A stretch of 64,000 bases of DNA from NCBI GenBank assembly GCA_002383165.1, contig DFXK01000007.1, positions 34,403 to 98,402 of the forward strand, written 5' to 3'. Of this stretch, positions 9,509-64,000 are shown piece after piece; position 1 is the first letter of the stretch; every line of letters starts with the position of its first letter. Source of the stretch: Flavobacteriales bacterium UBA4110 (lineage in GTDB: Bacteria; Bacteroidota; Bacteroidia; Flavobacteriales; Weeksellaceae). Under the pieces are notes generated by a model. The model saw only the letters and a program-made list of their open reading frames with translations. It had not been told where the DNA came from and did no database searches. The position numbers and the translations under genes were made by a program.

Positions 9509-10761
9509 CCGATTTCAATTAAATCATTCCACTTTGTTGTATAGCATTTAGATAGTTTTTCTCTACGCATTTTTTCTCTTTTCTTCAAATCCTGGGAAGC
9601 AATTCTTACCACTGGATCCATTTTAGAGATATTTAATTTATCCAATGTTTCCATTAATACTTTATGTTTATCTGATTCATTAAAAAATAAATTCATTTGT
9701 TTATATGGTTCGGGTGTAATTTCGTGGACTACTACACCTGTTTTTTTATATCCGAAACCATCTATGTATATAATATTTAGGGCTTGTTTGGCGTACTTTG
9801 CTATCGTAATGTCTGAGTTTGTAGGGAATGGTAAATTAATTACCACTTTATTTGAATATTGCGGATTATTTTCTTTAAATCTGTTCGTAATTAGAAAGAC
9901 TTCAATTTTACTGCAAAATGATTTTTCTCTGCGAAGTTTCTCGGCACAACGCACTGCAAATGTGCTTACTCTTTCTGCAATATTATTATATTCATATTCA
10001 TCAGAAGCAAAACTCCTTGTTGTAGCAATGGCTTTTTTTCTTTCCTGTACTTCTAAGTCTAAAAAATTAATCCCTAACAATTCTTTTTTTAATCTTAAAC
10101 CGACAATAGAAAATTCCTTTTGAACCGTGTAATCATCTAATTGGGTGAAATCATAAGCCGTTTTTACATTCCACGAAATTAATTTTTTAGAAATCTGTCT
10201 GCCAATACCCCAAACATCTTCAATATTTAACCATTTTAATGCTTTAATACGCTTTTCCTCATTATCAATTACATACACACCGTTACATCTATCAGGAAAT
10301 TTTTTAGCAATTTTGTTTGCAACTTTCGCCAATGCTTTAGTAGGTGCGAAACCAACACAAACAGGAAGCCAAGTGTTTTTTTTTACAGCATTTTTCATTT
10401 TTTGACCATAATCAAAAAGATTAAAATCTTGAAAGCCAACAAATTTTAAGAAAATTTCATCAATTGAATACACTTCAATATCCGGCGTGAAATATGTTAA
10501 CGTTTTCATAACCCTTTTACTCATATCATCATACAATTCATAATTACTTGAAAATACTTTAATGTCATATTTTTCTGTAAATTCTTTTAATTGATATGCG
10601 GGTAAACCCATTTTAATTCCTAAATCTTTAGCTTCATAACTTCTTGCAATAACACAACCATCATTATTTGATAAAACAACAATGGGAACACCTTCCAAAT
10701 GAGGTTGGAATGCACGTTCTGCGGATGCATAAAAATTATTACAATCTACTAATGCAAACAT
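9505..10761 (-). CDS. umuC: Y-family DNA polymerase, UmuC-like
   Basis: 418 aa. [20 protein letters not shown]...[14 protein letters not shown]...SIDEIFL are canonical UmuC/Y-family motifs. Confidence 0.85.
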
Positions 10762-10835
10762 TTTTTTGAATTATAAAGCAAATAAATTAAAATAAGTGTA
10801 AATTTATGCAATAAATCCTCAAGCCAAATAATTAA

Positions 10836-11108
10836 ATGGATAATATTTTTACACAAGAAGAAATACGGTTTCTACAAAGGTTAAACAAAGAAAGTGGTTT
10901 TGATTATGCAAAATATAATTGTAATGGATTGGATGTTCGTGACGATGAAGTGATCATTAATATTGTTGATAATGATTTCAAAGGAGATGATTTGAATGAT
11001 GCAGATATTTTAGCAGATTTATTAAAAAAAACTTATGATAAAATTCAATATGGCTATGAGTTGTTTATAGAAAATGAAGGTAACGAAATTAAACTTGTAA
11101 AAATATAG
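10836..11108 (+). CDS. Small acidic hypothetical protein
   Basis: 90 aa, D/E-rich, ending 2 nt before the SRAP gene start. No recognisable motif. Confidence 0.35.
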   Translation: MDNIFTQEEIRFLQRLNKESGFDYAKYNCNGLDVRDDEVIINIVDNDFKGDDLNDADILADLLKKTYDKIQYGYELFIENEGNEIKLVKI

Positions 11109-11110
11109 AT

Positions 11111-11776
11111 ATGTGTTATCGCTTTAGTACATTATATACAGCAAAGGAAGCAGAACAGTATTACAATGCTTATGAAATTGAGGAAGGATATTATACTGTT
11201 GATGAATTAAATGGCTTTAATTATCCTGAAACTGCTATCATAATGGATATTGCACCTACAGAAATAGTTGTGGGTAAATGGGGTTTATTTCCTAGTTGGG
11301 CGAAAGAAGATTTCCAAAAGAAAACCAATACCTTAAATGCTAAGGTAGAAACGATACCTCAATTGGCTTCCTATAAAAATTCAGTTAATAAAAGATGCGT
11401 AATACCGGCAAAACATTTTTACGAATGGCAATGGTTGGATGAAAAAGGAAAAACTAAAAAAAAGTTTAAAATAAAAATAAAAGATCAAGAGTTATTCTCT
11501 TTGGCAGGTATTTATAATTTATGGACTCATCCGACAACAGGAAAGCAACTTAAGACTTACAGTATTGTTACCACTGCTGCAAATGATTTGATGAGTATTA
11601 TACATAACAATAAGAAAAGAATGCCGATTTGTTTAAATAAAGATCTTCATAAATTATGGTTGGACCAAAAACCTTTAGAAATGTTTAGTTATCCTAATTT
11701 AGATCCCGAACTTGTGGCTGTGGAAGCAGAAGAAACATTTGCAGATACTTTGTTTCCAGAAGTGAACTCAAAATAA
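11111..11776 (+). CDS. SOS response-associated peptidase (SRAP/YedK family)
   Basis: 221 aa starting MCYRF (catalytic Cys2), with typical SRAP blocks ...NAKVET... and RCVIPAKHFYEW. Confidence 0.85.
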   Translation: MCYRFSTLYTAKEAEQYYNAYEIEEGYYTVDELNGFNYPETAIIMDIAPTEIVVGKWGLFPSWAKEDFQKKTNTLNAKVETIPQLASYKNSVNKRCVIPAKHFYEWQWLDEKGKTKKKFKIKIKDQELFSLAGIYNLWTHPTTGKQLKTYSIVTTAANDLMSIIHNNKKRMPICLNKDLHKLWLDQKPLEMFSYPNLDPELVAVEAEETFADTLFPEVNSK

Positions 11777-11967
11777 TATTAATGAGTAAATGATTAAAAA
11801 GAAGGAAAAATAATTTTAAGACACTATCCCGTAAAGTGTGTAAGTAGAAAAGTTAGGCTTGGATTTATGATCTGAGCCTTTTTTCAAAAATAAGCATAAA
11901 TTGGTTTAAAACCAATCCCCAATTATGGATTGGCATCGTCCATTTTTTATTCAGTACTTATAAAATA

Positions 11968-12470
11968 ATGGGTGAGGCGATGATTATTATATACTCTTAT
12001 ACAGTCCCTTTTTTTATTAAAATAGTCTTTGAAATTGCCAGGTTGTTTTCAAAGAATATGCAGATTCAAAAAACGGAATTGCAAGGGAAAATTGATAGAA
12101 GCGTTTATAATAAGAGAAAGAGAAGGATTTTCGGATACATCGAAAAAATTAGGGAAACTTTGAGCAACAAATTTTCAGATTTCACCAATGTTTTTATTGT
12201 AGATTCAACCCATATTGAAATATGCAAAATCAGCAGAGCAAACCGTTCTGCAATTTGTTCTACAGAAGATATCAAACCTTTTTTTGGATATTGTGCTTCA
12301 CAGAAAACCAGGTATTTTGGCTTCAAACTTCATACGGTTTGTGACAAAAACTGAATCTTCCATTCGTTTGATTTTACCTCTTCCAGTGTACATGATGTAA
12401 ATTATCTGAAGGATGTGTAAGAAAATTTAAAGAATTGTTTTTTGATAGGCGACAGAGGATATATTATTAA
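11968..12470 (+). pseudogene. IS982-like DDE transposase remnant
   Basis: FIVDSTHIEICK...FGYCASQKTRYFGFKLHTVCDKN*, then in the next frames FDFTSSSVHDVNYLKDV*...LIGDRGY. Stops and truncation are present. Confidence 0.55.
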
Positions 12471-12895
12471 TCTTTGAAAAATGATCTCTTTATGAATTAT
12501 CTAAAAAACCTTTCACAGATTACTTGGTGCTTTCTTAAAATTGTTTTTTAACTTAGTTCTGGCTACGAGTAATAAAAAATTATTCTTTGCTCATTTTATT
12601 AAAATCAGCTCATGGGATATCATTATTCAAAAAAAATTATGTGCAAATTTATCTGGTAATAAATAGCTTATGATCCAACTACTGTTTTTTTTCCATCTTT
12701 TGTTCTGGATCTGTATTGTAACCCATTCTTATACTCAAAACAATTATTTATATTTATTATCAGTAGTTGAGTTATAAAGTTGTGGGCATAGTTTTTGTTT
12801 TTAGGATTAAGATGTAAAAAGATATTTAAAGTCTCTGTCCCATAAAGGGTAATGTTACTAATAATACTTTCATTTAAAATCCTAATCAATATCTT

Positions 12896-15037
12896 ATGAA
12901 AAAAACTGAACATTCTGACGACAAACTGGAGCAGCTGAAAGAGCATACAACTGACAACTCCGGACAATTACTTACAACCAATCAAGGTCTAAAGATCAAT
13001 AACAATCAGGATTCTTTGAAATCAGGAGAACGAGGTCCGAGTCTTCTTGAGGATTTCATTCTAAGGGAAAAGATCACCCATTTCGATCACGAAAGAATCC
13101 CGGAAAGAATAGTCCATGCGAGAGGATCCGGAGCGCACGGGATTTTTAAAGTCAACAAAAGTTTAGCCAAATACACGAAAGCAAAATTCCTTGCACAAGA
13201 AGGAACGGAAACACCTGTGTTTGTTAGGTTTTCTACCGTTGCAGGAAGCGCGGGCAGTACAGATCTAGCCCGAGATGTCAGAGGCTTTGCCATTAAATTT
13301 TATACGGAAGAAGGCAATTATGACCTGGTGGGGAACAACATTCCCGTGTTCTTTATCCAAGATGCTATGAAATTCCCAGACCTGGTCCACGCAGTGAAGC
13401 CAGAGCCTGACAATCAGATTCCGCAGGCCGCATCTGCTCACGATACATTTTGGGATTTCATTTCTTTGATGCCGGAAAGTATGCATATGATCATGTGGGC
13501 AATGAGTGACAGAGCCATACCGAGAAGTTACAGAATGATGGAAGGTTTTGGTGTCCATACCTTCAAGTTCGTCAATGATGCAGGAAAGGTGCACTTCGTG
13601 AAATTCCACTTCAAACCGAAATTAGGCGTTCATTCCGTAGCTTGGGATGAAGCGACAAAGATTTCAGGGAAAGATCCCGATTTTCACAGAAGGGATCTTT
13701 GGGAAGCTATTGAAAACGGTGCCTTTCCAGAGTGGGATTTTGGTGTACAGATCATTCCTGAAGAGGACGAGCATAAATTTGATTTCGACCTATTAGATCC
13801 AACCAAACTTATTCCTGAAGAAGAAGTTCCTGTTGAATTGGTCGGAACTTTAACCCTTAACAGAAATCCGGATAACTTCTTTGCGGAAACTGAGCAGATT
13901 GCTTTCCATCCGGGACATTTGGTTCCAGGTATCGATTTTAGTAATGATCCGCTTTTGCAAGGTCGATTATTTTCTTACACCGATACGCAACTGTCAAGAT
14001 TAGGTTCGCCAAACTTCCACGAAATTCCGATCAACAGATCCATTAATACTGTTCATAATAATCAGCGTGATGGTCATATGCGCCAGCAGATCGTCAAAGG
14101 AAAAGTGAGTTACGAACCGAATTCAATTGGTGGTGGCTGTCCATTCCAGGCGATGATGAAAGATGGCGGTTTTACATCACAAGAAGAAAGAATCGACGGA
14201 AAAAAAATCCGTTCAAGAAGCGAAAGTTTCGTAGATCATTATTCTCAGGCAAAATTATTTTATAACAGCCAGTCGGCTCCGGAAAAAAAGCACCTTCAGA
14301 ATGCTTTGATATTTGAATTATCAAAAGTGACGATTCCTCCAATCCGAGAAAGAGTAGTTGGTCAATTGGCTTTCATTGATAAAGATCTTGCGGCTTTGGT
14401 TGCAAAAAAAGTGGGTGTAGATGTGACTAAACTGAAACAACCCAACGGAAGTATTCCTGCGGATGCAAATCCGAAAACGCTTCAAAGCCCGGAAAAAGAA
14501 CCTTCAACAAAAAGTTCTGATGCATTAAGTATGCAAAATACAGTCAAAGCTTCCATCAAAAGCCGGGTGATTGGTTTCATTATGGAAAATGGTGTGAATG
14601 CAGCTGATGTAAATGCATTAAAATCAAAATTAGAAAGCAAAGGTGCAGTGGTTCAGTTCATTGCAGGAAGTCTTTCGCATGTAACAGCAGACGACGGGAC
14701 GATTTTTACACCGAAACATTCGTTGACAAGTACAGCAAGTGTTTGTTTTGATGCCTTATATATTTGCAGTGGAAAAAAATCTTCTGACAATTTATTAGAT
14801 GAAGAAAATAAACCGGGAACTATTTTATTTGTAAACGAAGCTTATAAACATTGCAAAGCAATCTATTTTGGAAATGAAACGGAAGAAATAGTGAAAGCAA
14901 GTAACGTGGGCAAAAAAAACCATGAAGATCCAGCCATCATCAATTCAGAAAACAAAAAATCTGATGAGGCTTTCATAACAGCTATTGCCAATCACAGAGT
15001 CTGGGAATTGGAAACAGAAAGAAATAATCCGGCATAA
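12896..15037 (+). CDS. katE: Large-subunit catalase (HPII type)
   Basis: 713 aa. RERIPERIVHARGSGAHG, VRFSTVAG and RLFSYTDTQ motifs plus a C-terminal flavodoxin-like extension. Confidence 0.95.
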   Translation: MKKTEHSDDKLEQLKEHTTDNSGQLLTTNQGLKINNNQDSLKSGERGPSLLEDFILREKITHFDHERIPERIVHARGSGAHGIFKVNKSLAKYTKAKFLAQEGTETPVFVRFSTVAGSAGSTDLARDVRGFAIKFYTEEGNYDLVGNNIPVFFIQDAMKFPDLVHAVKPEPDNQIPQAASAHDTFWDFISLMPESMHMIMWAMSDRAIPRSYRMMEGFGVHTFKFVNDAGKVHFVKFHFKPKLGVHSVAWDEATKISGKDPDFHRRDLWEAIENGAFPEWDFGVQIIPEEDEHKFDFDLLDPTKLIPEEEVPVELVGTLTLNRNPDNFFAETEQIAFHPGHLVPGIDFSNDPLLQGRLFSYTDTQLSRLGSPNFHEIPINRSINTVHNNQRDGHMRQQIVKGKVSYEPNSIGGGCPFQAMMKDGGFTSQEERIDGKKIRSRSESFVDHYSQAKLFYNSQSAPEKKHLQNALIFELSKVTIPPIRERVVGQLAFIDKDLAALVAKKVGVDVTKLKQPNGSIPADANPKTLQSPEKEPSTKSSDALSMQNTVKASIKSRVIGFIMENGVNAADVNALKSKLESKGAVVQFIAGSLSHVTADDGTIFTPKHSLTSTASVCFDALYICSGKKSSDNLLDEENKPGTILFVNEAYKHCKAIYFGNETEEIVKASNVGKKNHEDPAIINSENKKSDEAFITAIANHRVWELETERNNPA

Positions 15038-15550
15038 AATTTCTGTGAGATAGAACGCTAGAAAAATAAGTTTGAACTGCTGGCGGATAAGGTGACACAA
15101 TGGTCTGGCAGTTCTTACGCATTTTTCGGAACTTTTCTTTTTAGGTGTTTCCATAATTAAATGTAATTCTTTTTTTGAAAACACTCCTTAACTTTTATAC
15201 TATAGAATGTCTAATTTTTGCTGACGATTTACATTTTTCTTGCTTCCAAAGCTAAACAAAATTAAAATATTTGTAACATGATATTGAAAGCAAATTAGTA
15301 CTTTCATGTGAACTGAAAAGGAACCTATTAACACCAATTACTAGCAAAAATTAATAATACTTTAAAGATTGTAAACAACTTTTGACTTATGTTATAATGT
15401 TCCTTAAAGAATCAAAATATTGTTATTTTCTGAACGAGTACAAATAATACAAAGACCTACTATCATAGTCTAAATGACAGATTGGTACCTTAATGTAATT
15501 TGGACTGATCTAATTTTTTATTGATAATTGGACTAATGGGTTTATTGTAA

Positions 15551-16444
15551 TTAATTTAAATTTTTATATTCAAGTGGTAACAGACCTGTTTTCTGTTTAA
15601 AAAGGCGAGTAAAATGTTGAGGATACTTAAACCCCAGCTCATATGCAATCTCGCTAATCGATTTATTGACACTAAAAACTCTTTCCTTTGCTACATTTAT
15701 TATTTTAAATTGAATATAATCCTGCGCTGTTTTTCCTGTTTCTCTTTTTATTAGGTCACCAAAATAATTCGGTGAAAGATTAAGTTCATCGGCACAGAAT
15801 GAAACGGTAGGAATTCCTTGTTCTTTAGGTTTGTTTGAAGAGAAGTAATCGTTTAAAAGAGCTTCAAACTTTTTCTACAATTCCCATATTTACTGTTTCT
15901 CTGGTAATAAATTGTCGATCGCAGAACCTTGTGCAGTAGTTTAAAAATAGTTCAATAGCCGAAGTAATTACTGTTTTACTATGCTTATCTATAGACTGAT
16001 TAAGCTCATGTTGAATTTGTCCAAAACATTCTAAAATAATTTTTCTTTCTTTTTCCGATAAATGTAATGCTTCATTTGTTTTGTAAGAAAAAAAACTAAA
16101 GGTATCCATATGTTTTCCTAAAGCAGTATTATGAAGAAAGTCTGGGTGGACCAGCAGAGCAGTACCAGAAGGTTGATACATTTCATTCCCTGTGACTTCA
16201 ACAATTTGACCAGGAGCAAAGAAAACTAATGTTCCTTGTTGGTAATCGTAAGTATTGTTGCCATATTTAATGTCACCGCATTTTACTCTTTTAATATGAT
16301 GCAGTAAACATTAAAGATCATTTTATAAGCGTGCCTAGGATCAGCTTTTGATAGATCTGTAATTGTAACTAAGGGATATAATGTTTCGTTATTATTAAAA
16401 TCATTATAGTCCTGAACTGTATTAAAATTAATTACTCGTTCCAT
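15551..16444 (-). pseudogene. AraC-family transcriptional regulator, two frame changes
   Basis: N-terminus MERVINFNTVQDY..., a middle section (ORF 15864-16181), and a C-terminal HTH ...LSPNYFGDLIKRETGKTAQDYIQ...SEIAYELGFKYPQHFTRLFK lie in three frames. The shifts map to short A runs (~16285 and ~15870). Confidence 0.75.
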
Positions 16445-16617
16445 TTTTGTAGTATTTTTATAAAACAAAGTTATATTTTTATGCTTTATCATTCCTTTTT
16501 ATAAATGATAATCCGTAATTACGGTACAAAATACCGTAATATATATACTTATTAGGGTAAGTGTTTGACGATTAGCATTTATTATTGACTTATTTTTACT
16601 TCCAATTTTTTATTTCA

Positions 16618-17754
16618 ATGGAAAATGATTTTGTTTATTTAGATTTTAATGCAACAACTCCTGTAGATCCGAGAGTGATTGATGAGATGAGTCCATATTT
16701 TAATAATTTTTATGCAAATTCAGGGAGCAGTCATTTATTCGGTATTGCTATAAATGAATCGGTTGAAAATGCACGAAAACAAATTGCTGATCTTATCACT
16801 GCAAATATTAAAGAAATTATTTATACTTCAGGAGCAACCGAAGCAGTAAATCTTGCTTTGAAAGGCTTTAACGAAACTAATAAAAAACATATTATTACTG
16901 TAAAAACGGAACACAAAGCTGTTTTGGATACTTGCAGTTTTCTTGAAAATCAAGGTTTCAACATATCTTATCTTGATGTGGACAGAGATGGACATATCAA
17001 TCTTGATGACCTGAAAAATGAGCTGAATGAAAAAACACTGATGGTTTGTGTCATGTATGTCAATAATGAAACTGGAGTTATTCAACCCATCAAAGAAATT
17101 GCTGAAATTACTCATCAGAACGGAAGTTTGTTTTTTTGTGATGCAACGCAGGCGGTTGGGAAAATTCCAATCGATGTTAAAGAATTAGATATTGATTTGA
17201 TGGCTTTTTCAGCACATAAATTTTACGGACCGAAAGGAATTGGGGCACTTTATATTTCTTCAAAACTAAAGAAAGACCTGAATTCGCAAATCCAAGGTGG
17301 CGGGCAACAGTTTAATTTAAGAAGCGGAACTTTGAATGTACCGGGAATTATTGCGTTGGGAAAAGCTGCCGAAATAGCGATAATGGAAATGCAGGAAAAT
17401 GCAATTTATATTGCCCAATTAAGAGATGAGTTAGAAAATACTTTGCTTGATATTCCAGAAGTTTATATCAATGGTGATAAAACTAACAGAATTTTCAATA
17501 CAACGAATATTTGTTTCCAAGGAGTGAATTCTGATCAAATGATTCTCTCTTTGGGTACGGTTTGTGTTTCCAGCGGTTCCGCCTGTAATGCAACGACTTC
17601 CAAACCTTCTCACGTTCTAAAAGCAATGGGTATGAATGATTCAGACGCCCTTTCTTCAATACGATTCAGCTTAGGTAAATTCAATACAAAATCAGATATA
17701 GAAATTGCTGTTGAGAAAATTAAAAAAATCGCTGCAAAATTGCGAGAGTTATAA
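16618..17754 (+). CDS. Cysteine desulfurase (class V aminotransferase, NifS/IscS-like)
   Basis: VYLDFNATTPVDPRV, SAHKFYGPKGIGALY (PLP lysine) and SSGSACN (active Cys). Likely start MENDF at 16618. Confidence 0.85.
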   Translation: MENDFVYLDFNATTPVDPRVIDEMSPYFNNFYANSGSSHLFGIAINESVENARKQIADLITANIKEIIYTSGATEAVNLALKGFNETNKKHIITVKTEHKAVLDTCSFLENQGFNISYLDVDRDGHINLDDLKNELNEKTLMVCVMYVNNETGVIQPIKEIAEITHQNGSLFFCDATQAVGKIPIDVKELDIDLMAFSAHKFYGPKGIGALYISSKLKKDLNSQIQGGGQQFNLRSGTLNVPGIIALGKAAEIAIMEMQENAIYIAQLRDELENTLLDIPEVYINGDKTNRIFNTTNICFQGVNSDQMILSLGTVCVSSGSACNATTSKPSHVLKAMGMNDSDALSSIRFSLGKFNTKSDIEIAVEKIKKIAAKLREL

Positions 17755-54489: not shown

Positions 54490-54800
54490 GTTTATTCAAA
54501 TCCTCTACAAAATTTTTCGAAAAATGCACTGCCTCACTTAAGGAGACAACTATTTTTTAGTTGTCTCTTTTTTATAACCATAAATATCTCTTTGTCAAGT
54601 CCTTATGATCTGACTTTTAGTGTTCGACATTTTAAACGTAAAATGCTTAGTCTGTTTGAAAAAAACAGTCTGAAAGCGCCACAACTGGCATGTAATCTAC
54701 AATCCTTAAGTGTTCGAAATCTCCTTAAGGTCAGAGCTTTGTCTCTCCTTTACTTATTGTAGGTTTTTCTATTAAGTATAGTAGTTCTGATATGATTTTA
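54490..54800. repeat. Direct repeat copy 2 (serine-recombinase 3' remnant + flank)
   Basis: Near-identical core with copy 1 (54534-54674). Recombinase-tail remnant ...LKEISNT* on the minus strand from ~54706. Confidence 0.85.
54543..54573 (+). terminator. Intrinsic terminator inside repeat copy 2
   Basis: Same GAGACAACTA / TAGTTGTCTC hairpin plus T6. Confidence 0.7.
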
Positions 54801-54909
54801 AATTTAGTGATAGTTTTTTAAACAATAATTTGAGATAAGGACACTAAAGACTTTGTATATTTTACAAAGGAAATGCTTTAATTTACTTGTGGATTTTAAT
54901 TATTATCGT

Positions 54910-54921
54910 AATATTGCAATA
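54910..54921. promoter_or_regulatory. Candidate ArsR operator 1
   Basis: Perfect 12-bp palindrome ATATTGCAATAT, 15 nt upstream of the arsR ATG, embedded in the conserved TTATTATCGTNATATTGCAATATA. Confidence 0.6.
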
Positions 54922-54935
54922 TAAAAATATAAATT

Positions 54936-55265
54936 ATGGGACTTACTAAAACTGAAATATTCACAGATGAGCAAAACAGTCTAGCTTCTCTCTTTAAAGT
55001 TTTGGCACATCCTGCAAGAATCGCAATCCTCCAATACATCATTAATCAGAAAGCTTGTATCTGTAATGACCTAGTGGATGAACTTGGACTGGCACAGGCA
55101 ACTATCTCTCAACATTTGAAAGAACTGAAAAGTATCGGGATTATTCAAGGGACTATCGAAGGAAAATCTGTTTGCTATTGTATCGAAGATAAAAAATGGA
55201 AAGAGATTCAAGGATTGTTCAATCAATTTTTTGAACAAGATGTAAAAGTTGGGCAATGTTGCTAA
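54936..55265 (+). CDS. arsR: ArsR/SmtB-family metalloregulator
   Basis: LFKVLAHPARIAILQYI...CICNDLVDELGLAQATISQHLKELK (winged HTH with Cys pair); C-terminal GQCC. Confidence 0.85.
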   Translation: MGLTKTEIFTDEQNSLASLFKVLAHPARIAILQYIINQKACICNDLVDELGLAQATISQHLKELKSIGIIQGTIEGKSVCYCIEDKKWKEIQGLFNQFFEQDVKVGQCC

Positions 55266-55294
55266 CAACTTTTTTTATAATCTTTATTATCGTC

Positions 55295-55306
55295 ATATTG
55301 CAATAT
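55295..55306. promoter_or_regulatory. Candidate ArsR operator 2
   Basis: Same ATATTGCAATAT palindrome and flanking direct repeat, 32 nt upstream of the next ars gene. Confidence 0.6.
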
Positions 55307-55337
55307 ATAAATTAAATAATATCAAATATTAATTATT

Positions 55338-55802
55338 ATGAAACTATCAAAAATCAAAGCAATCTTACCTACACTGAACAATGTCGAATTTCAGTTAGAG
55401 AATGGAAAATTTGTTCCTGAGCATTTCCACGTTACAGAAATAGGGGTTATCACAAAGAATTTTATAGACTGCGGTGGCAATACCAGAAATGAAAAGGTTG
55501 TCAATTTCCAATTGTGGGATGCGAATGACTTTGAACATAGGTTGAAACCTACCAAACTCTTAGACATCATCTCACTTTGTGAGGACAAACTAGGAATCGA
55601 AGATTCAGAGATAGAGGTTGAATATCAAAGCGAAACTATCGGTAAGTATGATTTAGATTTTAACGGGAATAATTTTGTTCTGAAAAATAAACAAACTGCT
55701 TGTCTGGCAAATGAGGCTTGTGGAATTCCTGAAGGAAATCAAACTGTGGAATCATCTGATTCGAATAATACTTGCTGCACTCCCAAGTCAGGTTGTTGCT
55801 AA
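55338..55802 (+). CDS. DUF6428-like ars-operon protein with Cys-rich tail
   Basis: 154 aa. FVPEHFHVTEIG pattern and C-terminal NNTCCTPKSGCC. Position between arsR and the other ars genes. Confidence 0.55.
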   Translation: MKLSKIKAILPTLNNVEFQLENGKFVPEHFHVTEIGVITKNFIDCGGNTRNEKVVNFQLWDANDFEHRLKPTKLLDIISLCEDKLGIEDSEIEVEYQSETIGKYDLDFNGNNFVLKNKQTACLANEACGIPEGNQTVESSDSNNTCCTPKSGCC

Positions 55803-55816
55803 AAAAAGACTGCATT

Positions 55817-56308
55817 ATGGAAATCAAACCTATAACCAAAGACAACTTTTCGGAAGTAATCGAAATCTACAAACAAGGCTTGGCCACCAATATAGCCACT
55901 TTTCAGAACGATTCTCCACAATGGGAGGAATGGGATAACGGGCACCTAGATTTTTGCAGGATCAGTATTTACGATGATGAAAAAATGCTTGGTTGGACAT
56001 CTCTAACACCTGTTTCCAGTCGGTGTGTCTATTCTGGTGTCGCAGAAGTCAGCGTCTACGTCGCACAGGAAGCACGAGGAAAAGGAATTGGAAAAATATT
56101 GTTGAAAGAATTGATCAATCAGAGTGAAGAAAATGGGATATGGACATTGCAGTCTGGTATATTCGCTGAAAACGAAAATAGTATCAGGCTGCACGAGAAA
56201 TGCGGATTCAGATTAGTTGGCTACCGAGAAAAGATAGGTAAAAAGAATGGGGTTTGGAAAGACAATGTCCTTATGGAGCTTAGAAGCAAAAATGTCGGAA
56301 TAGATTAA
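55817..56308 (+). CDS. arsN: GNAT N-acetyltransferase (phosphinothricin/arsinothricin acetyltransferase-like, ArsN-type)
   Basis: Likely start MEIKPITKDNF at 55817. GNAT core AEVSVYVAQEARGKGIGKILLKELI...GFRLVG. Confidence 0.65.
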   Translation: MEIKPITKDNFSEVIEIYKQGLATNIATFQNDSPQWEEWDNGHLDFCRISIYDDEKMLGWTSLTPVSSRCVYSGVAEVSVYVAQEARGKGIGKILLKELINQSEENGIWTLQSGIFAENENSIRLHEKCGFRLVGYREKIGKKNGVWKDNVLMELRSKNVGID

Positions 56309-56334
56309 TAAACAATAAAACTTAAACAACGCCT

Positions 56335-56946
56335 ATGTATTCAGAATTAACAAATACTTTTGAACAATTACATTATCAAAACATCAGCGAGGAAAGAAAA
56401 ATGACATTGCAACCATTAATTGATTTTGTACAGCAAAAAATGGATGAAGGAAAAGATATTAATATCAATTTCATTTGTACCCATAACTCGCGCAGAAGCC
56501 ATCTATCACAAATCTGGGCACAAGCAGGAGCTGCTTATTTCAATATTCTAAACGTACATTGTTATTCGGGAGGTACGGAAGAAACAGCATTATTTCCAAA
56601 AGTGGTTGAGACACTCATTAATCAAGGCTTTAATATCTTCAAAATTGCAGACGGCAATAACCCCATATATTCTATTAAGTACAATGAAGATTCATCACCT
56701 GTAATTGGGTTTTCAAAAAGATATGATAGTCCGTTCAATCCTACGTCTGGGTTTGCAGCAATTATGACCTGTTCCCAAGCAGACGGTGGCTGTCCTTTCA
56801 TTGCAGGAGCAAAAAAAAGAATTCCTATCACATTTGAAGACCCTAAAATCTCTGATAACACACCACAGCAGTCACAAGTATATGCAGAAAGAAGCTTGCA
56901 GATAGCTTCTGAAATGTTCTACGTTTTCTCTAAGATTAAAAAATAG
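56335..56946 (+). CDS. arsC: LMW-PTP-type arsenate reductase / protein-tyrosine phosphatase
   Basis: CX5R loop ICTHNSRRS and downstream [10 protein letters not shown] cysteines; ars operon context. Confidence 0.7.
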
Positions 56947-56950
56947 TTTT

Positions 56951-57979
56951 ATGCAACCAAAACTAAAATTTCTTGACCATTATCTTACCTTATGGATATT
57001 CCTTGCAATGGCAACAGGTATTGGCTTAGGATATTTCTTTCCTGCAATTTCACAAATAACAAACGCAATGTCGGTAGGAACGATAAATATTCCACTGGCA
57101 ATAGGCTTGATTTTGATGATGTATCCTCCTTTGGCAAAAGTTGATTATTCATTATTACCTCAAGCTTTCAAAGATAAAAAAGTAATAGGTCTTTCGTTAT
57201 TTCTCAATTGGTTTGTTGGTACGATGCTGATGTTTGGATTAGCCGTTTTATTCTTACGAAATGAACCTGATTATATGACAGGATTGATACTGATAGGCTT
57301 GGCGAGATGTATTGCAATGGTCATTGTTTGGAGTGACTTAGCAAAAGCCAACAGAGAATATACCGCTATGCTGGTTGCATTGAATAGCATCTTTCAAGTG
57401 GTGTCTTACAGCCTTTTAGTTTGGTTGTTCATCAATATATTGCCCGCCAAATTAGGTCTAGCCAACTTCAATATAACCGTATCAATGAAAGATGTTACCG
57501 AAAGTGTATTGATTTATTTAGGTATTCCATTTCTAATAGGTTTTCTAAGTCGTTATCTTCTTATTAAATTAAAAGGTATAGAATGGTATAACAGAAAATT
57601 TGTTCCAAGAATATCGCCAATCACATTGTATGCTTTACTATTTACCATAATAATAATGTTTAGTCTGAAAGGAGATAAAATATTAGAACTGCCTATGGAT
57701 GTGATAAAAGTTGCCATACCGTTGGTTATTTATTTTGTACTAATGTTTTTTGTTAGCTTCTTTATCAACAAATCTTTAAATATACCCTATGATAAAAATG
57801 CTTCAATCGCATTTACTGCTACCGGCAATAATTTCGAATTGGCGATAGCAGTAGCAATAGCAGTTTTTGGCATTCACTCTCCACAAGCTTTCGTAGGTGT
57901 TATCGGACCATTGGTGGAAGTTCCTGTGCTTATCTTATTAGTGAAAACAAGTTTGTGGCTGAAGAAAAAATATTATTAA
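56951..57979 (+). CDS. acr3: ACR3-family arsenite efflux transporter
   Basis: 342 aa, 10-TM pattern. [24 protein letters not shown] start and [11 protein letters not shown] (conserved Cys). Confidence 0.9.
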
Positions 57980-58020
57980 TATAAAGACAATCTAAGAAAA
58001 CTAAAAGTATTTTTATATAC

Positions 58021-58305
58021 GTGCGTCGACTTACTTAAGTAGACAACTATTTATTAGTTGTTTACTTTTTTTAATCCATAAATATCTCTTTATTAAAATT
58101 TTATAGTCTGATTTTTTGTATTCGATATTTTAAGCGTAAAATGCTTATATTTTTTGAAATAAACAGTCTGAAATTGCTACAATAGGCTTGTAACATACAA
58201 TCATTAATTGTCCGAAATCTCCTTAATATTTTGGATTTTTCTTTCTTCTGATTTGTTGTGATTTTTTGCTATTAAATATAGTAATTCTAATATAGTTTTA
58301 GCTTC
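58021..58305. repeat. Direct repeat copy 3 (overlaps the intact recombinase 3' end)
   Basis: More diverged copy of the same unit. The non-coding flank is 58021-58203; the remainder is the last ~34 codons of the recombinase. Confidence 0.8.
58039..58072 (+). terminator. Intrinsic terminator inside repeat copy 3
   Basis: GTAGACAACTA / TAGTTGTTTAC stem (one G-U pair) plus T7. Confidence 0.65.
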
Positions 58306-59859
58306 ATCATCGCTTACCAAGATTCCATTTTTAGCCAAAATAATAATTGCTTGTTCTACTGAAATATTCCTATCAATGAAATTCATTTTTTCCAATATTT
58401 TTTTTGTTGCTTTTTTTGAGAATATTTTTGAGAATGCATGATTTAAATTTAAAGAAAGACTTCCTGTTTTATAGTCAATATCAATCGGAGGAATAAGATC
58501 CACCAGATGTTTTTTATCCGAAATATCAAACTCTGAAAATTTTTGAAAAATTTTGACTAATGCTTTATCTTTTATTTGATTACTGTTATCAATAGCTTTT
58601 AATTTATTAGAAATATTACGGCTTTCCATTTTAAGGTTTTTTGTATTGACTTGATTCTCTTTTTTTAATGCGTTATAATCATCAATTTTTAAAATTCCAG
58701 CTATAAGTAATTTTCTACCTTTGGAAAGAGTTAAATTCTCTTCTTTTATTTTTCTTTCTACTAAGTATTGAGTGTGTAAATAACTTGTCTTCTGAGTCTT
58801 TATATTCTGATCTTCCAATATTTTCTTAAATAATTCAATACAACTATTTGATAGTATTAATTCTTGAAGTTTATTTTGATAGCAATCATTAAGTAAAACT
58901 GCGCCAATCCTAATACTGCAGCCATTATTGCAATGGTAGTAGGGATATCTTTTCAGCTTACCTTTTGAAAAACTCCCAGTAAGTTTTTGACTACAAACAG
59001 GACAAATCAAAAAACCTCTAAGGAAAAACATTTCTCTTATATCATCTCTTTTAGCCGTAATTTTTCTTTCTGTATTAATCACAGACTGTACCTGATAAAA
59101 TAATGACTCTGAAATCAAGGGCTCATGTAGTCCCAGGATAATTTGGTTTTCATTAGTGTTATGCTTTATTAATATATGCCCACAATAAACTGGATTACGC
59201 AAGACTCTGAAAAAATACGATCTTGAACATATAAGTCCTTTATCATTAGCTATTCTATTAATTTCAGATATTTTATGGTCATTCATAGCAACTTGATTGA
59301 AAGCCCATTTTATAATTTCGGCTTCAGGCTCTTTAGGAACAATAGTTTTTTTTCCATCCATTAATGTCACATTGAGGAAACCTATGGGAGCTTTATTAGG
59401 ATATCTTCCCATTAATTTTGCCCGACGAATGCCATTAGAAACATTTTGAGATCTCCGAGTATTTTCTGCTTCTGGAAAAGCTAAATGTAGAGCTTGCAAA
59501 ATTATATTTTCTGGCACAGATAAATCAATGTATTGATCAATTGCCATTGGTGTCGTTTTATATTTTCGAAGTTTTTCAATCATCTCATAAGCATATTCGA
59601 TATTTCGACTAAATCGATCCCATTTTATAAATAATATGTTCTTATCTTCTGTTGGTTTCTTTTTAATTTCGGAGAATAATTCCTTCCATTTAGGCCTATT
59701 AAAATTTTTAGCAGAGTAGTCTTCGCGATAAATTCCTTTGACTTCAATATTGTTATATTTACAATATTTCAGTAATCGGTCTTCCTGATCCGGTAATGAG
59801 TAACCCTTTCTTTTTTGTTCGTCAGTACTTACTCTGACGTATAAGTAAGCTGTTTTCAT
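58204..59859 (-). CDS. Large serine recombinase
   Basis: 551 aa. AYLYVRVSTDEQ (catalytic Ser), recombinase domain, zinc ribbon CPVCSQKLTG...YYHCNNGC and a long coiled-coil C-terminus. Confidence 0.9.
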   Translation of the reverse strand: MKTAYLYVRVSTDEQKRKGYSLPDQEDRLLKYCKYNNIEVKGIYREDYSAKNFNRPKWKELFSEIKKKPTEDKNILFIKWDRFSRNIEYAYEMIEKLRKYKTTPMAIDQYIDLSVPENIILQALHLAFPEAENTRRSQNVSNGIRRAKLMGRYPNKAPIGFLNVTLMDGKKTIVPKEPEAEIIKWAFNQVAMNDHKISEINRIANDKGLICSRSYFFRVLRNPVYCGHILIKHNTNENQIILGLHEPLISESLFYQVQSVINTERKITAKRDDIREMFFLRGFLICPVCSQKLTGSFSKGKLKRYPYYHCNNGCSIRIGAVLLNDCYQNKLQELILSNSCIELFKKILEDQNIKTQKTSYLHTQYLVERKIKEENLTLSKGRKLLIAGILKIDDYNALKKENQVNTKNLKMESRNISNKLKAIDNSNQIKDKALVKIFQKFSEFDISDKKHLVDLIPPIDIDYKTGSLSLNLNHAFSKIFSKKATKKILEKMNFIDRNISVEQAIIILAKNGILVSDDEAKTILELLYLIAKNHNKSEERKIQNIKEISDN

Positions 59860-59981
59860 AAATGTGACGTAATTAACATCTAATTTAAAAACATTTAAGT
59901 TAGGTGTTTATACATCATCCATACACTACAGACCAAATAATGAAACTAACAAGAATTTTTAATGATACTCATGAAAGTGTT

Positions 59982-60467
59982 TTATAGACTCTGTTTGAGA
60001 GTATCACTGTCGGATAGTTTAATTAGATTTCCAATAGCGTCAACATCTTCGAAATGTATAGCAACAGGAATTACTTCATATCCTAATAAATAAGAAGTTT
60101 TAACTCGATGACGGCCGTCCTCGAATTCAATTTTTTTCTCAAATACGTTGAAATGTATTTTTGGAGGATCAAGATATTCCTTATTGATCCAATGTTGTAT
60201 GATTCTATATATTCTATGATTATTATTACTTTTAATATTCTCAGGAAGAAATAAAGATGTCATATCTACCTCTCTAAAATCAGAATTTTTAACCAATTCC
60301 TCGGTTCTTACAAAATGTATTTTAAAAATACCTTCTTCCGGAAGTAAGTCTGAAGCTTTTATAGAGGAACTGTTTTCATTGACAGCCCAGTAAGGTTTAG
60401 GTGTTAATAATATTATTTCTTCAACTGTTTTTGATAAGAATTTTTTTATTAAATATGCCATAATCAA
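59982..60467 (-). CDS. Small ParB/Srx-fold-like protein
   Basis: 161 aa. FEDGRHRVKTSYLLGYEVIPVAI resembles the DGxxR core of ParB-like nuclease/DUF262 domains. Assignment is by motif only. Confidence 0.4.
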   Translation of the reverse strand: MIMAYLIKKFLSKTVEEIILLTPKPYWAVNENSSSIKASDLLPEEGIFKIHFVRTEELVKNSDFREVDMTSLFLPENIKSNNNHRIYRIIQHWINKEYLDPPKIHFNVFEKKIEFEDGRHRVKTSYLLGYEVIPVAIHFEDVDAIGNLIKLSDSDTLKQSL

Positions 60468-60500
60468 AGGTAATAATTCTTATTTAGAATAATTTTCTTA

Positions 60501-61976
60501 TTAATATCGCCCCAAAAAACTTTTTTTTCTTTCCCACTCACCGTATTCAAGATGGTGATCGATTTTATCATTTATATGACGTTTAATTGGAAGTAGAGAA
60601 ATACCTAGAGATGACCTGCCCACAATAGATAATATATTTCTCCATTCGGCAGCGTTGATGTCCCCAAATATGACATTACCGGTTACTACGGTTCCTCCAT
60701 TACCTATCCAGTAAATCTGCTCAAATAACTTTACATCTTGTGTAAAGGTTAGGAATAGTAAGATTATTTGCTCAAATAATTCTTTGAATGAGTGTCTGAC
60801 AATATTAATCAACAGATTCATACGGTCGGGATTTTCATAATTATCAATACAATACTTTCTCAAAAAAGTAGCAGCTCTTTCACGATGCAGAATATCTATA
60901 TTCTCAAAAAACACATTGCAATCATGTGTTCCAACTGCAATAAGATAACTTTCTTTAGAAGCGAAATGGTCTAAGGTCTTAGATAATGAGGACTCAATAT
61001 CTTTAATCTGCCAAATGAGCTTTAATTTTTTATTGTTTCCTGAATTCTTGTTATTAGCATCTTTATAAAAGTAGTCAGTGTAATCGGCAAGAAAGCTTGT
61101 ATCTTGTTGCAGTATGTTCAAAAATATTTTACCATTATAATCATAAAGCCTATGAATTTTACTTTGCTGAATAAATAGCTTCTTAACTAATTCTAAATCA
61201 TTATTTAGTAACTCCAAACTTTCTTCAAGAAAGTCTGTTTGAACTATAATTTCGATGTTTTCTGATTCGTCTTTTTCTGTTATAATGTTAATGAGTTTAT
61301 GGAAAATTGTAGAGTCTATTCTCAAAAACTTGTGCAAGTATTCAAAGTAGATGTAAGTTCTCTCATTTATCTTTCTAATACTATTAATAAGTTTTTTAAT
61401 GTAGGAATTGTTAATCAATGAATCATCTAAATAATAGAAGTAAGACAATTCCCAAGATGCTTGATGTTGATATTTCTCTTCAGTTATTATATTCCAAAGG
61501 GAAGCGCTCTCTTTTTCATTTTTAAGATTATTTTGAAAAATCTTTATTGGTATGTAATCTACTGAGTTATCGTCTTTAATAATTTCCTTTAAAAAAGCAA
61601 GACCGAGCTCTTTGTTATGCTTATAATTTTCATCAACCACAAAATCCAAAGAATTATTATATTCAAAGTCATTTGCTGCCTGATTTTTTAAATATTTGAA
61701 AGTATTATAAAAATTAGTTACTTCTGCTACATTACAAAACACAAATGAAGATCTAATTTCTTTTTCTTTTAATCGATCATATTCGCGATAATCTTCGTAA
61801 TCATATCTTTCTTTGTCTCTAATTCTATCCCAGTCTAATTTCAGATATGCTTTGTAAATATCATTAGTGTATTTATTCAACAGTCTACTGAACGCAGCGT
61901 TCTTTATTTTATGTTTTTTCCATAATCTAACTTGATTTTGAACATACCTACAATCGACAAATGACTCTGATTGCAA
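60501..61976 (-). CDS. Hypothetical helical protein, or C-terminal half of the upstream NTPase
   Basis: 491 aa with no ATG near the start (TTG at 61976). It is in the same frame as ORF 61980-63992, separated only by TAA + CAT. No recognisable motif. Confidence 0.4.
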   Translation of the reverse strand: MQSESFVDCRYVQNQVRLWKKHKIKNAAFSRLLNKYTNDIYKAYLKLDWDRIRDKERYDYEDYREYDRLKEKEIRSSFVFCNVAEVTNFYNTFKYLKNQAANDFEYNNSLDFVVDENYKHNKELGLAFLKEIIKDDNSVDYIPIKIFQNNLKNEKESASLWNIITEEKYQHQASWELSYFYYLDDSLINNSYIKKLINSIRKINERTYIYFEYLHKFLRIDSTIFHKLINIITEKDESENIEIIVQTDFLEESLELLNNDLELVKKLFIQQSKIHRLYDYNGKIFLNILQQDTSFLADYTDYFYKDANNKNSGNNKKLKLIWQIKDIESSLSKTLDHFASKESYLIAVGTHDCNVFFENIDILHRERAATFLRKYCIDNYENPDRMNLLINIVRHSFKELFEQIILLFLTFTQDVKLFEQIYWIGNGGTVVTGNVIFGDINAAEWRNILSIVGRSSLGISLLPIKRHINDKIDHHLEYGEWERKKSFLGRY

Positions 61977-61979
61977 ATG

Positions 61980-64000
61980 TTATTCAATAATTTGAAGAAC
62001 AAAGGGCATATCAAACGTCATCAATTCCTTTGAGATACCTGGATAAGGCTCTCCAAAATTTTGCAGTAAGCTTAAGGCTTGTTTGGGATAGCTGCTGTAA
62101 TATTGATTAAATGTAATCCATATATTTCCTCTAAGGTCTTGTATTTTCTTATAGTTAGGTGTACGATAGATACGACTTGTGACTATATTATTATGAAATC
62201 CGTGAGATGTAAATTCAATTTTTAAGAATGTTTTTGACAACTCAAAAAATGCGACGGCATAAATCGTTTCATTGTTTTGTAGGTTTTCAATCAGAAGTTC
62301 AAAAAGGATGTTCTGTCTTGAAAAATCAATTGATTCATCCTCTCTATCAAAACCGATTACCTCTACTATTTTATGAATAAGCTCTGGAAGGTGTTGTGGT
62401 TTCTTTTTAGCATACTCGAAACCTAATTCTAAAGATTCTTTAAGATAATAGGTATTACGAAAAAAATGACCAAGAAGCTTTATTATTTTATTTTGATTGT
62501 ATACAAAATCATTTGGTTCATAGCTTACATTATATTGATCCAATTCAAGATTTGGCAGAGGTTGAAGTGTTAGGTATATATATTCAAGTGTCTGATTTTG
62601 AAGATAAAACCAAAAAGAGGACAAAAATTTAATTGCTTTTTCCTCTTCATTGTTTTTAGTTTTATTCCAGAATCGGACAAGTGAATCATATAATTTCTCC
62701 TTAACATGATTATGATCAAACATATTGTTAGCAGATATTACATTTTCATCAAACCTTTTTTGATGAGATTCAAAGTACTTGTCAACAAGAATATCAAAAG
62801 ATAATAGCTTGTCTTTTATAAATGTTCTATAAAAAAAATAGATTGTTAGATTTTGTTCAGCTATTTTGACATGATTATGTTGGATTTCGACGAGTTCTAA
62901 TCTGTCAAGTTTTTCTATGGCATGAAAAAAATCTGAATAACCAATATCAAAATGGTTGAGGATTGATTCTGTTATTTCTCTATCATGAAAAGGGATTGTG
63001 TGAAAAAAGGCTATTAGACCTAAACATTTAATGTTGAAATCATTCGAGAACTCTCCATTGTCTTTTATAAACGTGCTAAAATACATTTCAAACAATCCAG
63101 AAATGTCATTTAACACATTAATATCTTTCTTAGCAACTGCCAACTGTGTTGCCATTATTGCAATTCTTGGGTTTCCATTAGCAATGTTAACGATAGTGTA
63201 TAAATAATCATGGTTCGTAATATTAAAAGGTTCAGTTTTAATAATATCTGTGATTTGTTCATCACTTAATTTTTGTAGATGTAATTTGTGAGGTAAAAAG
63301 TCAGTACATAGAAGTTTAAGACTTTCATATGCGTAATCGCGAACTGTGCAAATAATTTTTAAATTTCCACTTCTTATTCCTCTGTTAAAGCCTAAGATTT
63401 GGTTAAAAGCATCAATTCGGTTTGCATCATCTACAAAAAGTATGTAATCTTTGTCATCATTAAAATATTGATTTAAATCGTCCAATAATGAATGATGCTT
63501 ATAAGAAATACAGAAAGACTGATATGACTTATTTTCAGTAACAAAATTCTTGATGCATTCTAAAACTAATTTCGTTTTACCAATGCCCGGAGCTCCAGTT
63601 AAAATAATAAAGTCATGCTTTAATAAATCGGTTTTAAGTGAGTACAGCTCTGATTCTCGATGTAAGAATGGGTTATCTAAAGGAGTTGCAATACTTTTAG
63701 AAGCTTTATTGTATTCATTTATGAATACATCCATTGATACGATCTGTCCAGTATCTAAAGTAATACCAAGGTAGTGGCTAGCCAAATCTCTGTGCTGCAA
63801 GTGGAGTTCCATGGCTAAGGAATCTAAAGTGTTGATCGTAAGGTTGATATTTGTGTGTTCAAGAACTTTGTGTAACTTTTCAATTTCATTAGTCTTCAGT
63901 TTAAAGTTTACACATAAAATAATTTCTTCTATTTTTTCAGGACTAATTGTAGTCTTAGAATGATCGATACAATTGGAAATATCTTTTATCAATTTGTTGA
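61980..64000 (-). CDS. P-loop NTPase (STAND/AAA-like), N-terminus outside window
   Basis: Walker A LTGAPGIGKTKL (~63573-63596), Walker B ILFVDDANR (~63426-63443), then a long helical region. The frame is open to position 64000. Confidence 0.6.
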   Translation of the reverse strand, partial: NKLIKDISNCIDHSKTTISPEKIEEIILCVNFKLKTNEIEKLHKVLEHTNINLTINTLDSLAMELHLQHRDLASHYLGITLDTGQIVSMDVFINEYNKASKSIATPLDNPFLHRESELYSLKTDLLKHDFIILTGAPGIGKTKLVLECIKNFVTENKSYQSFCISYKHHSLLDDLNQYFNDDKDYILFVDDANRIDAFNQILGFNRGIRSGNLKIICTVRDYAYESLKLLCTDFLPHKLHLQKLSDEQITDIIKTEPFNITNHDYLYTIVNIANGNPRIAIMATQLAVAKKDINVLNDISGLFEMYFSTFIKDNGEFSNDFNIKCLGLIAFFHTIPFHDREITESILNHFDIGYSDFFHAIEKLDRLELVEIQHNHVKIAEQNLTIYFFYRTFIKDKLLSFDILVDKYFESHQKRFDENVISANNMFDHNHVKEKLYDSLVRFWNKTKNNEEEKAIKFLSSFWFYLQNQTLEYIYLTLQPLPNLELDQYNVSYEPNDFVYNQNKIIKLLGHFFRNTYYLKESLELGFEYAKKKPQHLPELIHKIVEVIGFDREDESIDFSRQNILFELLIENLQNNETIYAVAFFELSKTFLKIEFTSHGFHNNIVTSRIYRTPNYKKIQDLRGNIWITFNQYYSSYPKQALSLLQNFGEPYPGISKELMTFDMPFVLQIIE

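Follow-up and report, generated by a model that had tools for sequence, protein, structure and literature searches.

An apparent three-gene module in a Flavobacteriales contig is a stop-interrupted, probably inactive Avs-like gene with a loosely linked ParB/Srx-fold gene

We analysed 64,000 nucleotides of contig DFXK01000007.1 from Flavobacteriales bacterium UBA4110 (assembly GCA_002383165.1, positions 34,403 to 98,402 of the forward strand), a stretch that we call the window and number from its first letter. Near its right-hand end three open reading frames (ORFs) on the minus strand had been proposed, in an earlier note made from the letters alone, to form a three-gene module and a candidate new system in which an NTPase is paired with a small ParB/Srx-like protein. 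We find instead that ORFs 1 and 2 make up a single gene, in which a recent CAA-to-TAA change has placed a stop at codon 751. The explanation that we favour, and consider probable, is that this gene specifies a single Avs-like (antiviral STAND) polypeptide of 1243 amino acids (aa) with a nuclease and an nSTAND3 part, interrupted here by the stop, and that the ParB/Srx protein encoded downstream is independent of it and not an obligate subunit. With its Avs layout it is a known kind of defence gene and not a new system. The main result is a correction, in which a supposed three-gene system becomes an interrupted, probably inactive single Avs-like gene and a loosely linked small gene.

The three ORFs comprise 670 aa (61980..63992, in a frame that stays open to base 64000), 491 aa (60501..61976) and 161 aa (59982..60467, read from a TTG at 60467). 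They are separated by 3 and 33 nt, with a further 122 nt to a recombinase gene, and lie in DNA with a GC content of 0.293 (58204-64000) compared to 0.351 in the rest of the window; these features, like the Walker motifs described below, are in the sequence as the earlier note gave them. ORFs 1 and 2 share one reading frame across the 3-nt gap, ORF 2 being the 3' part of the gene from an internal TTG, and the window reads ...VLQIIE*HLQSESF... around an in-frame TAA (61980-61982, minus strand). Base 64000 falls within codon 79, and the part of the gene before it (codons 1-78 with a single base of codon 79, about 80 codons or 240 nt) is outside the window. Extending the sequence past this point, as the note had advised, recovered it from Logan contig L001, which equals window 54701-64000 with 0 mismatches in 9300 nt and runs 5.9 kb beyond the window end; here the first ORF has 750 aa, its start being about 80 codons past the window edge. 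The best match, P0015 (1243 aa), covers both the 750-aa and the 491-aa ORFs and reads ...VLQIIEQHLQSESF... at the window's stop, where it and a second intact orthologue, P0016, have a glutamine. Since the two ORFs are in frame across the 3-nt gap and P0015 spans both, we conclude that they are a single gene of 1243 codons split by one TAA.

The lengths of other family members agree with this. We found more than 1300 homologues of the 750-aa protein, and of the best 120 almost every one has a length of 1240-1245 aa. A single ORF of 1200-1300 aa (listed range 1238-1292) is present in 70 of 80 loci from other species, the remaining ten being cut by contig ends (L016, L025, L049), split (L042, L065, L077), truncated (L055) or represented by shorter ORFs of 1121-1173 aa (L063, L074, L075). 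A word-indexed search with the 491-aa ORF alone returned four proteins and missed the full-length family, the homologues of ~1243 aa being exposed by the 750-aa query.

The contig carrying P0015, L089, has the gene order of L001 and a CAA (Gln) at codon 751. The two contigs differ at 14 positions in 12,096 nt (99.9 % identity), from which we conclude that the nonsense mutation is very recent; six of these differences are in the NTPase gene, giving one synonymous change, four amino-acid changes and the stop. In the window, the 5' part of the gene (61983..64000, minus strand, codons 79-750) runs from the end of the nuclease domain through the linker and the nSTAND3 NTPase into a putatively helical C-terminal region, of which it includes the first ~280 aa, and the 3' part (60501..61979, minus strand, codons 752-1243 and the natural stop) contains the rest of what may be a sensor region. 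The window copy is truncated in this putative sensor region and is most likely a non-functional pseudogene.

It could be argued that the TAA arose as an artefact during assembly or sequencing, or that it is tolerated and the gene functions in this strain, as the rest of the gene is nearly undamaged (six codons differ from the intact allele) and TAA differs from CAA by one base. We regard this as very unlikely, since L001 was assembled independently of the window contig, is recorded in two samples and agrees with the window at 9300 of 9300 bases including the TAA, and since related copies are broken in other ways. In Chryseobacterium-like genomes the NTPase gene has been damaged independently by the nonsense mutation of the window, by a 1-nt indel leaving ORFs of 358 and 884 aa (L115:4314-8044), by a 5' truncation to 459 aa (L084:8582-9961) and by reduction to a short remnant (L119:7611-8000), and P0011 is a 498-aa C-terminal NTPase fragment from Chryseobacterium sp. 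T16E-39. Such repeated inactivation fits a costly abortive-infection gene.

The 1243-aa protein is built from a predicted PD-(D/E)xK nuclease domain (aa 1-~110), a linker, an NTPase with a helical/GxP module (aa ~196-470) and a C-terminal region (aa ~470-1243). Its sequence signatures assign it to the STAND NTPases, and within these to the nSTAND3 clade, as the earlier note had supposed for the superfamily from the layout of the protein. The full-length protein matches Pfam nSTAND3 (PF20720) at aa 200-322 with an E-value of 1e-10 and 42.0 bits against a cut-off of 27.2, the window fragment alone scores 41.4 bits, and homologues carry precomputed PF20720 matches. On the minus strand of the window we locate Walker A, GAPGIGKT, at 63573-63596 (aa 213-220), Walker B, ILFVDD, at 63426-63443 (aa 264-269), TVRDYA, which contains the NTPase residue R298, at 63330-63347 and GNPRIA of the helical module at 63159-63176 (aa 353-358). 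Residues G213, G216, G218, K219, D268, D269, R298 and G353-N354-x-R356 are at least 95 % conserved among 70 intact homologues. A Walker A motif, an hhhhDD Walker B motif, an arginine after strand 4 and a GxP-type motif are reportedly the features that define STAND NTPases.

The earlier note had also suspected that an N-terminal effector domain was cut off at the window edge, and L001 supplies it. Structure comparison, another of its suggestions, was made with Foldseek for two AlphaFold2 models, those of aa 1-195 and of the small protein. The model of aa 1-195 (pLDDT 80) has the order H-H-E-E-E-H-E, and its best match in the PDB is phage-portal-bound Avs4 (8dgf_B; E 1.1e-3, probability 1.0, query TM score 0.52, 180 columns). 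The next recurring matches are Card1, YaeQ, MUS81/XPF, MspJI, EcoT38I and MunI, all of which we take to be PD-(D/E)xK folds, and weak Pfam matches were seen to an EC042_2821 restriction-endonuclease-like family and to bunyaviral L_protein_N. On this basis we assign to the N-terminal domain a PD-(D/E)xK nuclease fold. With Avs4 as its best structural match, 'Avs-like', the layout that the note had proposed, is a fair description of the protein. Conservation in the 70 homologues is at least 95 % for T53-P54-D55, E69 and K80, and K48 is invariant in close homologues. In the alignment of these 70 sequences the N-terminal domain is the most conserved region of the protein, with identities among closer and among distant homologues of 65 % and 44 %, compared to 58 % and 38 % for the NTPase and ~40 % and ~25 % for the C-terminal ~770 aa. 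Searched with profiles against PDB sequences, the N-terminal domain and the whole family gave only the P-loop of UvrA, at E-values of 0.015 or above, and the C-terminal ~770 aa gave no match in Pfam or, by profile, in PDB sequences. A possible internal duplication of the C-terminal region, indicated by a weak BLAST self-match, was rejected on comparing aa 430-790 with aa 791-1243 by hhalign (probability 0.06).

By analogy with Avs3, Avs4 and Avs7 (PMC13581612, and general background on these proteins), the C-terminal region of an intact copy would bind a protein derived from the invader. Binding would lift autoinhibition and the NTPase would then drive a nucleotide-dependent oligomerisation, in which clustered PD-(D/E)xK domains may cut DNA indiscriminately and so abort the infection.

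The family is found in Bacteroidota, Bacillota, Planctomycetota, Ignavibacteriota and Spirochaetota, in a Gracilibacteria metagenome-assembled genome (MAG), in Stenoxybacter, in cyanobacteria and in two archaeal MAGs. In PLSDB it is carried by 13 Leptospira plasmids and one B. cereus plasmid; on two of the Leptospira interrogans plasmids (NZ_CP092989.1 and NZ_CP092742.1) the match is in pieces, with an IS3-like IS1501 transposase (of an insertion sequence, IS) annotated beneath. No match to the NTPase was found among phage records, and literature searches by accession found no paper naming family members.

Beyond the window edge, divergent from the NTPase gene (L001:216-5177), are genes for GajA (595 aa), GajB (652 aa) and SduA (408 aa), which PADLOC recognises with E-values of 1e-225, 8e-246 and 2e-142. 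The Gabija system is complete, with Pfam domains AAA_15 and OLD-like_TOPRIM in GajA and UvrD-helicase in GajB, and the three genes adjoin the NTPase gene in L001, L087 and L089. With Gabija and Shedu right past the window edge, we conclude that the locus is within a defence island, and the earlier placing of it as mobile-element cargo agrees with these neighbours and with the low-GC DNA beside the serine recombinase. The Shedu gene beside the intact NTPase P0016, in metagenome contig L087, is itself disrupted, leaving pieces of 82 and 258 aa (L087:854-2047). Running PADLOC, as the note had recommended, succeeded for these neighbours and yielded no model beyond weak P-loop matches for the NTPase, and no match for the small gene.

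In other species we scanned 139 flanking proteins and found no Pfam family in more than four of them. Recurring families are AAA_21/AAA_15, UvrD, Fic, reverse transcriptase/group II intron, DDE transposase and resolvase, and single neighbours include GajA/B, SoFic, a TIR-like effector, an HNH protein and a tyrosine integrase. As a separate observation, in 9 of the 80 loci (L003:6874-7993, L015, L019, L022, L023, L026, L035, L046 and L053) a protein of ~243 aa, with a C-terminus like TIR/nucleoside-2-deoxyribosyltransferase proteins (PADLOC TIR effector, E 3.7e-7), is encoded directly against the start of the NTPase gene or overlaps it, and in seven of the nine a protein of ~140 aa of unknown family is encoded upstream of it. 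This arrangement may be a three-gene variant of the system; the window locus lacks it.

Several observations on the large protein weigh against our explanation of the locus. Significance in Foldseek is modest (E 1e-3 for the nuclease domain, and 9e-3 for the match of the small protein to Osa, described below). In the nuclease motif, E69-Y-S71, the canonical lysine of (D/E)xK is replaced by Ser71, so that the catalytic assignment is incomplete; K80, in the next helix, or K48 might be a substitute catalytic lysine, the assignment to K80 being a guess. A sensor role is proposed for the C-terminal region purely by analogy. The whole-family profile detects no solved Avs or NLR sequence in the PDB, and no PADLOC v2 model, those for Avs1-5 included, fits the window protein or the three homologues tried with it, which gave only weak P-loop matches to mad8 and MkoA. 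Many direct neighbours in other genomes are housekeeping genes. On the side of the small gene, a functional link to the NTPase that is specific to the Chryseobacterium lineage could still exist, the shared cassette described below being sharply bounded and its two genes being separated by 39 nt with no terminator-like site between them. Taken with the Avs layout, the lack of a fitting PADLOC model places the protein as an Avs architecture outside the named families tested (Avs1-5 and the Avs chains in the PDB).

Some of these points would also suit a mobile-element or housekeeping NTPase-nuclease that processes DNA and is no immune sensor. The family is uniform in length (1238-1292 aa) and can be aligned end to end across phyla, it has many housekeeping neighbours and no dominant defence partner, and PADLOC v2 has no model for it. 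We consider this highly improbable, however, given the sporadic occurrence across distant phyla and archaea, the carriage on plasmids, the recurring pseudogenisation and IS insertion, and the neighbouring Gabija, Shedu, SoFic and TIR-like genes. The layout of nuclease, STAND NTPase and large C-terminus is moreover that of Avs proteins, with Avs4 as the best structural match of the N-terminal part.

The small gene follows at 59982..60461 on the minus strand and encodes 159 aa from an ATG at 60461, which the homologue alignment and the gene call in L001 agree in making its likely start. The earlier note had paired its product with the NTPase, and had counted a lack of conserved co-occurrence in other genomes against that pairing; we find that co-occurrence is not conserved. 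A tblastn search with the small protein detected it in none of the 80 NTPase loci from other species (0/80), and its relatives at 60 % identity or below are all found without the NTPase; in L082, for example, the neighbours are SbcCD-like and OLD/UvrD genes, in L085 an AraC regulator gene and an AlkB-type gene on either side, and in L088 a Gabija-like pair downstream. Among 24 metagenome loci of small-gene relatives, the NTPase occurs only in the Chryseobacterium-like L090.

Within Chryseobacterium-like genomes the two genes do travel together. L001 and L115/L116 are 87 % identical only over L001 5541-9842, a 4.3-kb cassette that holds the promoter, the NTPase and the small gene and corresponds to about 60015-64000 of the window plus 316 nt past its edge. 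The flanks of L115/L116 differ, with patchily similar Gabija genes on the left (68-76 %) and DprA-like, SSB, DUF932 and RadC genes without a recombinase on the right. Homology with L084, L119 and L091 likewise goes no further than the 3' end of the small gene; the right boundary of the cassette is always in its last ~35 nt, and the C-terminal tail of the small protein is variable among homologues. A shared block so sharply bounded, with differing flanks, indicates that both genes act as one 4.3-kb cassette in these genomes. Scans around the small gene for sigma-70 promoters, which do not cover Bacteroidota promoters, and for terminators gave counts equal to those of shuffled sequences.

The cassette raises the possibility that the Chryseobacterium NTPase and ParB/Srx genes are a real two-gene system, the small protein being a second, NTP-dependent (nucleoside triphosphate-dependent) DNase effector, a regulator or an immunity factor. 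Such a system would account for homology that is confined to the promoter and both genes between differing flanks, for a right boundary that in L084, L119 and L091 recurs where the small gene ends, and for the 39-nt gap on a common strand with no terminator-like site; a small-gene relative is also found 292 nt upstream of a 1489-aa Avs2-like protein in L096/L097/L099. We nevertheless think it unlikely. Against it are the 0/80 count in other species and the relatives at 60 % identity or below without the NTPase, and the small gene has remained whole beside broken copies of the NTPase gene, namely the 459-aa 3' fragment in L084, the remnant in L119, the stop-interrupted gene of the window and the frameshifted gene of L115. 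Its integrity where the NTPase has decayed argues for an independent function. All pairs of NTPase and small gene moreover come from one lineage, so that their adjacency counts as one event. The small gene was most likely linked to the NTPase once, in a Chryseobacterium-type cargo cassette of a mobile element, and is not an obligate subunit.

A role for the small gene as an accessory of the serine recombinase, the alternative that the earlier note had itself raised, was also rejected. The recombinase (58204..59859, minus strand; 551 aa with Pfam Resolvase, Recombinase and Zn_ribbon_recom domains) is found after the small gene in the window, L087 and L089 alone and does not belong to the conserved cassette; L082, L084, L085, L088, L115-L118 and L119 lack it, and in L084 and L115-L118 other genes take its place.

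The small protein itself is assigned a ParB/Srx fold, as had been suspected from its DGRHR motif (within FEDGRHRV; 60105-60119, minus strand). Its AlphaFold2 model is a single domain (pLDDT 77, pTM 0.75), and all 50 of the 50 PDB matches listed by Foldseek are ParB/Srx proteins, the best being Osa (4ovb; E 9e-3, probability 1.0), followed by ParB, Noc, KorB, PadC, sulfiredoxin, SbnI and SerK. In the viral library BFVD the top matches are ParB/Sulfiredoxin proteins, three of them with E-values of 1e-3 or below. A profile of 77 sequences matches SbnI (E 1.5e-3) with DGRHR aligned to DGVHR; a profile of 11 sequences matched nothing in the PDB. The window protein has no match at E-values up to 1 in Pfam (ParBc, DUF262, DUF1015, PFIN), NCBIfam or PADLOC, and among the 77 relatives three match DUF1015 weakly and one matches PFIN weakly (E about 2e-3). 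Close homologues number only 10, and every one of these that carries a source name is from Chryseobacterium. An exhaustive profile search gave 191 representatives at 50 % clustering, mostly stand-alone proteins of 135-175 aa, and in the 77 family members W27, W93, P101-P102 and D117-G118-R119-H120-R121 (numbered on the 161-aa ORF) are near-invariant. A partition ParB of a ParABS system was rejected, the protein being a single domain of 159 aa with no ParA-type gene among those tabulated for its loci. Neither the viral contigs of IMG/VR nor the phages in GenBank nor the PLSDB plasmids gave relatives of the small gene, with weak PHROG matches seen, so that an origin from phages or plasmids is unsupported. 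Separately, we observed distant relatives (P0220, P0222 and P0216) in which the ParB/Srx domain is fused to an Amidoligase_2 or an ADP-ribosyltransferase-like domain. Fusions of this type are familiar from multidomain conflict proteins of phages and conjugative elements.

ParB/Srx domains of conflict systems are described as NTP-regulated, largely non-specific ATPase/DNase effectors, Osa being one example (PMC5512222). By analogy, the small protein would bind a nucleotide in the pocket formed by DGRHR and would most likely be a conflict factor of its own, NTP-binding or acting as an NTP-regulated DNase in the manner of Osa.

We also compared the surroundings of small-gene relatives elsewhere. 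In L088:2377-5298, L092:120-1745 and L114:2-2121 they are directly upstream, on the same strand, of genes for OLD/AAA_15-type ATPases, and an OLD-family ATPase is encoded within ~5 kb of the small gene also in the window lineage, L082 and L096. In L096:5947-11185 a relative is followed by the 1489-aa protein similar to Avs2 (PDB 9o4e, E 2.7e-6), which on comparison proved unrelated to the window NTPase, and a 965-aa P-loop protein in L107 had no PDB match. It is conceivable, then, that the small family is a companion of OLD-family (Gabija-like) ATPase-nucleases, its place beside a STAND gene being incidental. The immediate downstream position and common strand of the ATPase in L088, L092 and L114 would be expected of a companion, as would the frequency of OLD-family neighbours, which were seen in 6 of 21 distinct small-gene contexts compared to 3 of 80 control NTPase loci with the same queries, and the small proteins (40-65 % mutually identical) are better conserved than the ATPases adjoining them (only 20-30 %). 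We hold this to be quite unlikely, since the sample is small, detection is biased by query ATPases that come from the small gene's own loci (3 of 18 contexts without those loci), Gabija occurs frequently in defence islands, the genes differ in orientation and spacing (divergent, with other genes between, in the window and L082), and most contexts have no such ATPase.

A broader idea is that this unnamed stand-alone ParB/Srx family of ~190 representatives comprises portable, NTP-dependent accessory or effector modules of defence ATPases in general. It derives from the occurrence of relatives beside OLD/Gabija-like ATPases (L088, L092, L114), an Avs2-like STAND protein (L096) and the nSTAND3 protein of the window, from the better conservation of the small protein than of its partners, and from its constant position at the 3' edge of the cassette. 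We give it a low probability, and a general accessory role of the family is possible but unproven. If true, it would add a new shared component (a regulator, a co-effector or a cassette-boundary element) to several defences otherwise regarded as single systems, and the recurrence of the small family beside different defence ATPases is a testable lead. Our preferred explanation, of an independent small gene behind an interrupted Avs-like gene, brings to attention a nuclease-nSTAND3 family of more than 1300 homologues, uniform in length and spread over many phyla, without a PADLOC v2 model. The intact orthologues P0015 and P0016 are either of them reasonable candidates for a trigger screen.

Elsewhere in the window, an operon of arsenic-resistance type adjoins the recombinase on the plus strand (54936-57979), with genes for an ArsR-like helix-turn-helix protein, a DUF6428 protein, a GNAT acetyltransferase, a 203-aa protein without a Pfam match and an SBF/ACR3-type transporter. 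The junction between operon and recombinase is kept in L087, and L089 shows the beginning of the operon before the contig ends. A GC content of ~0.29-0.30 is found also at 7001-13000 and 15001-17000 (window mean ~0.35), which are maybe acquired segments.

Among known systems, the small protein resembles most closely Osa, the fertility-inhibition factor of pSa (PDB 4ovb/4o7k), which is likewise a small stand-alone ParB/Srx protein on mobile DNA and is its best PDB match, with one member of the small family weakly matching Pfam PFIN. It differs from Osa in sequence (identity 11 %, TM about 0.46), in having no Pfam ParBc or PFIN match in the window protein itself and in its context, for which no link to conjugation or a type IV secretion system is shown. 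The free-serine kinases SbnI and SerK are both among its Foldseek matches, and the profile aligns aa ~83-143 to the N-terminal domain of SbnI with DGRHR equivalent to DGVHR (E 1.5e-3). Unlike these kinases, the 159-aa window protein has only one domain, without the C-terminal domain of SbnI, and it has no siderophore or cysteine-biosynthesis context.

For the large protein, Avs4 (an Mrr-like nuclease-STAND-TPR sensor; PDB 8dgf) is the nearest counterpart. Both have, in a single polypeptide, an N-terminal PD-(D/E)xK nuclease (predicted here), a STAND NTPase and a very large C-terminus, Avs4 is the best structural match of aa 1-195, and the window protein is encoded in a defence island. They differ in that no sequence relation was found with the PADLOC Avs models or in the PDB profile search, in that the window NTPase is assigned to the nSTAND3 clade and in the motif E69-Y-S71, which is without the (D/E)xK lysine. 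The nSTAND3 domain is the NTPase module of Avs5, or SIR2-STAND (bioRxiv 10.1101/2025.07.08.663546), with which the window protein has in common the PF20720 module and, if its C-terminal region is a sensor, the tripartite logic. It differs from Avs5 in its effector, a predicted PD-(D/E)xK fold and not SIR2, in lacking a PADLOC Avs match and in a putative sensor region unrelated in sequence. In Lee et al. (Nature 2026; PMC13581612) the STAND clades of prokaryotes number 589, with 198 counted as defence-associated, and the Avs families number at least 90. The criteria of that survey are an immune-type effector and known defence genes nearby, both of which we find for the window family, and this family is probably already among the STAND clades described there.

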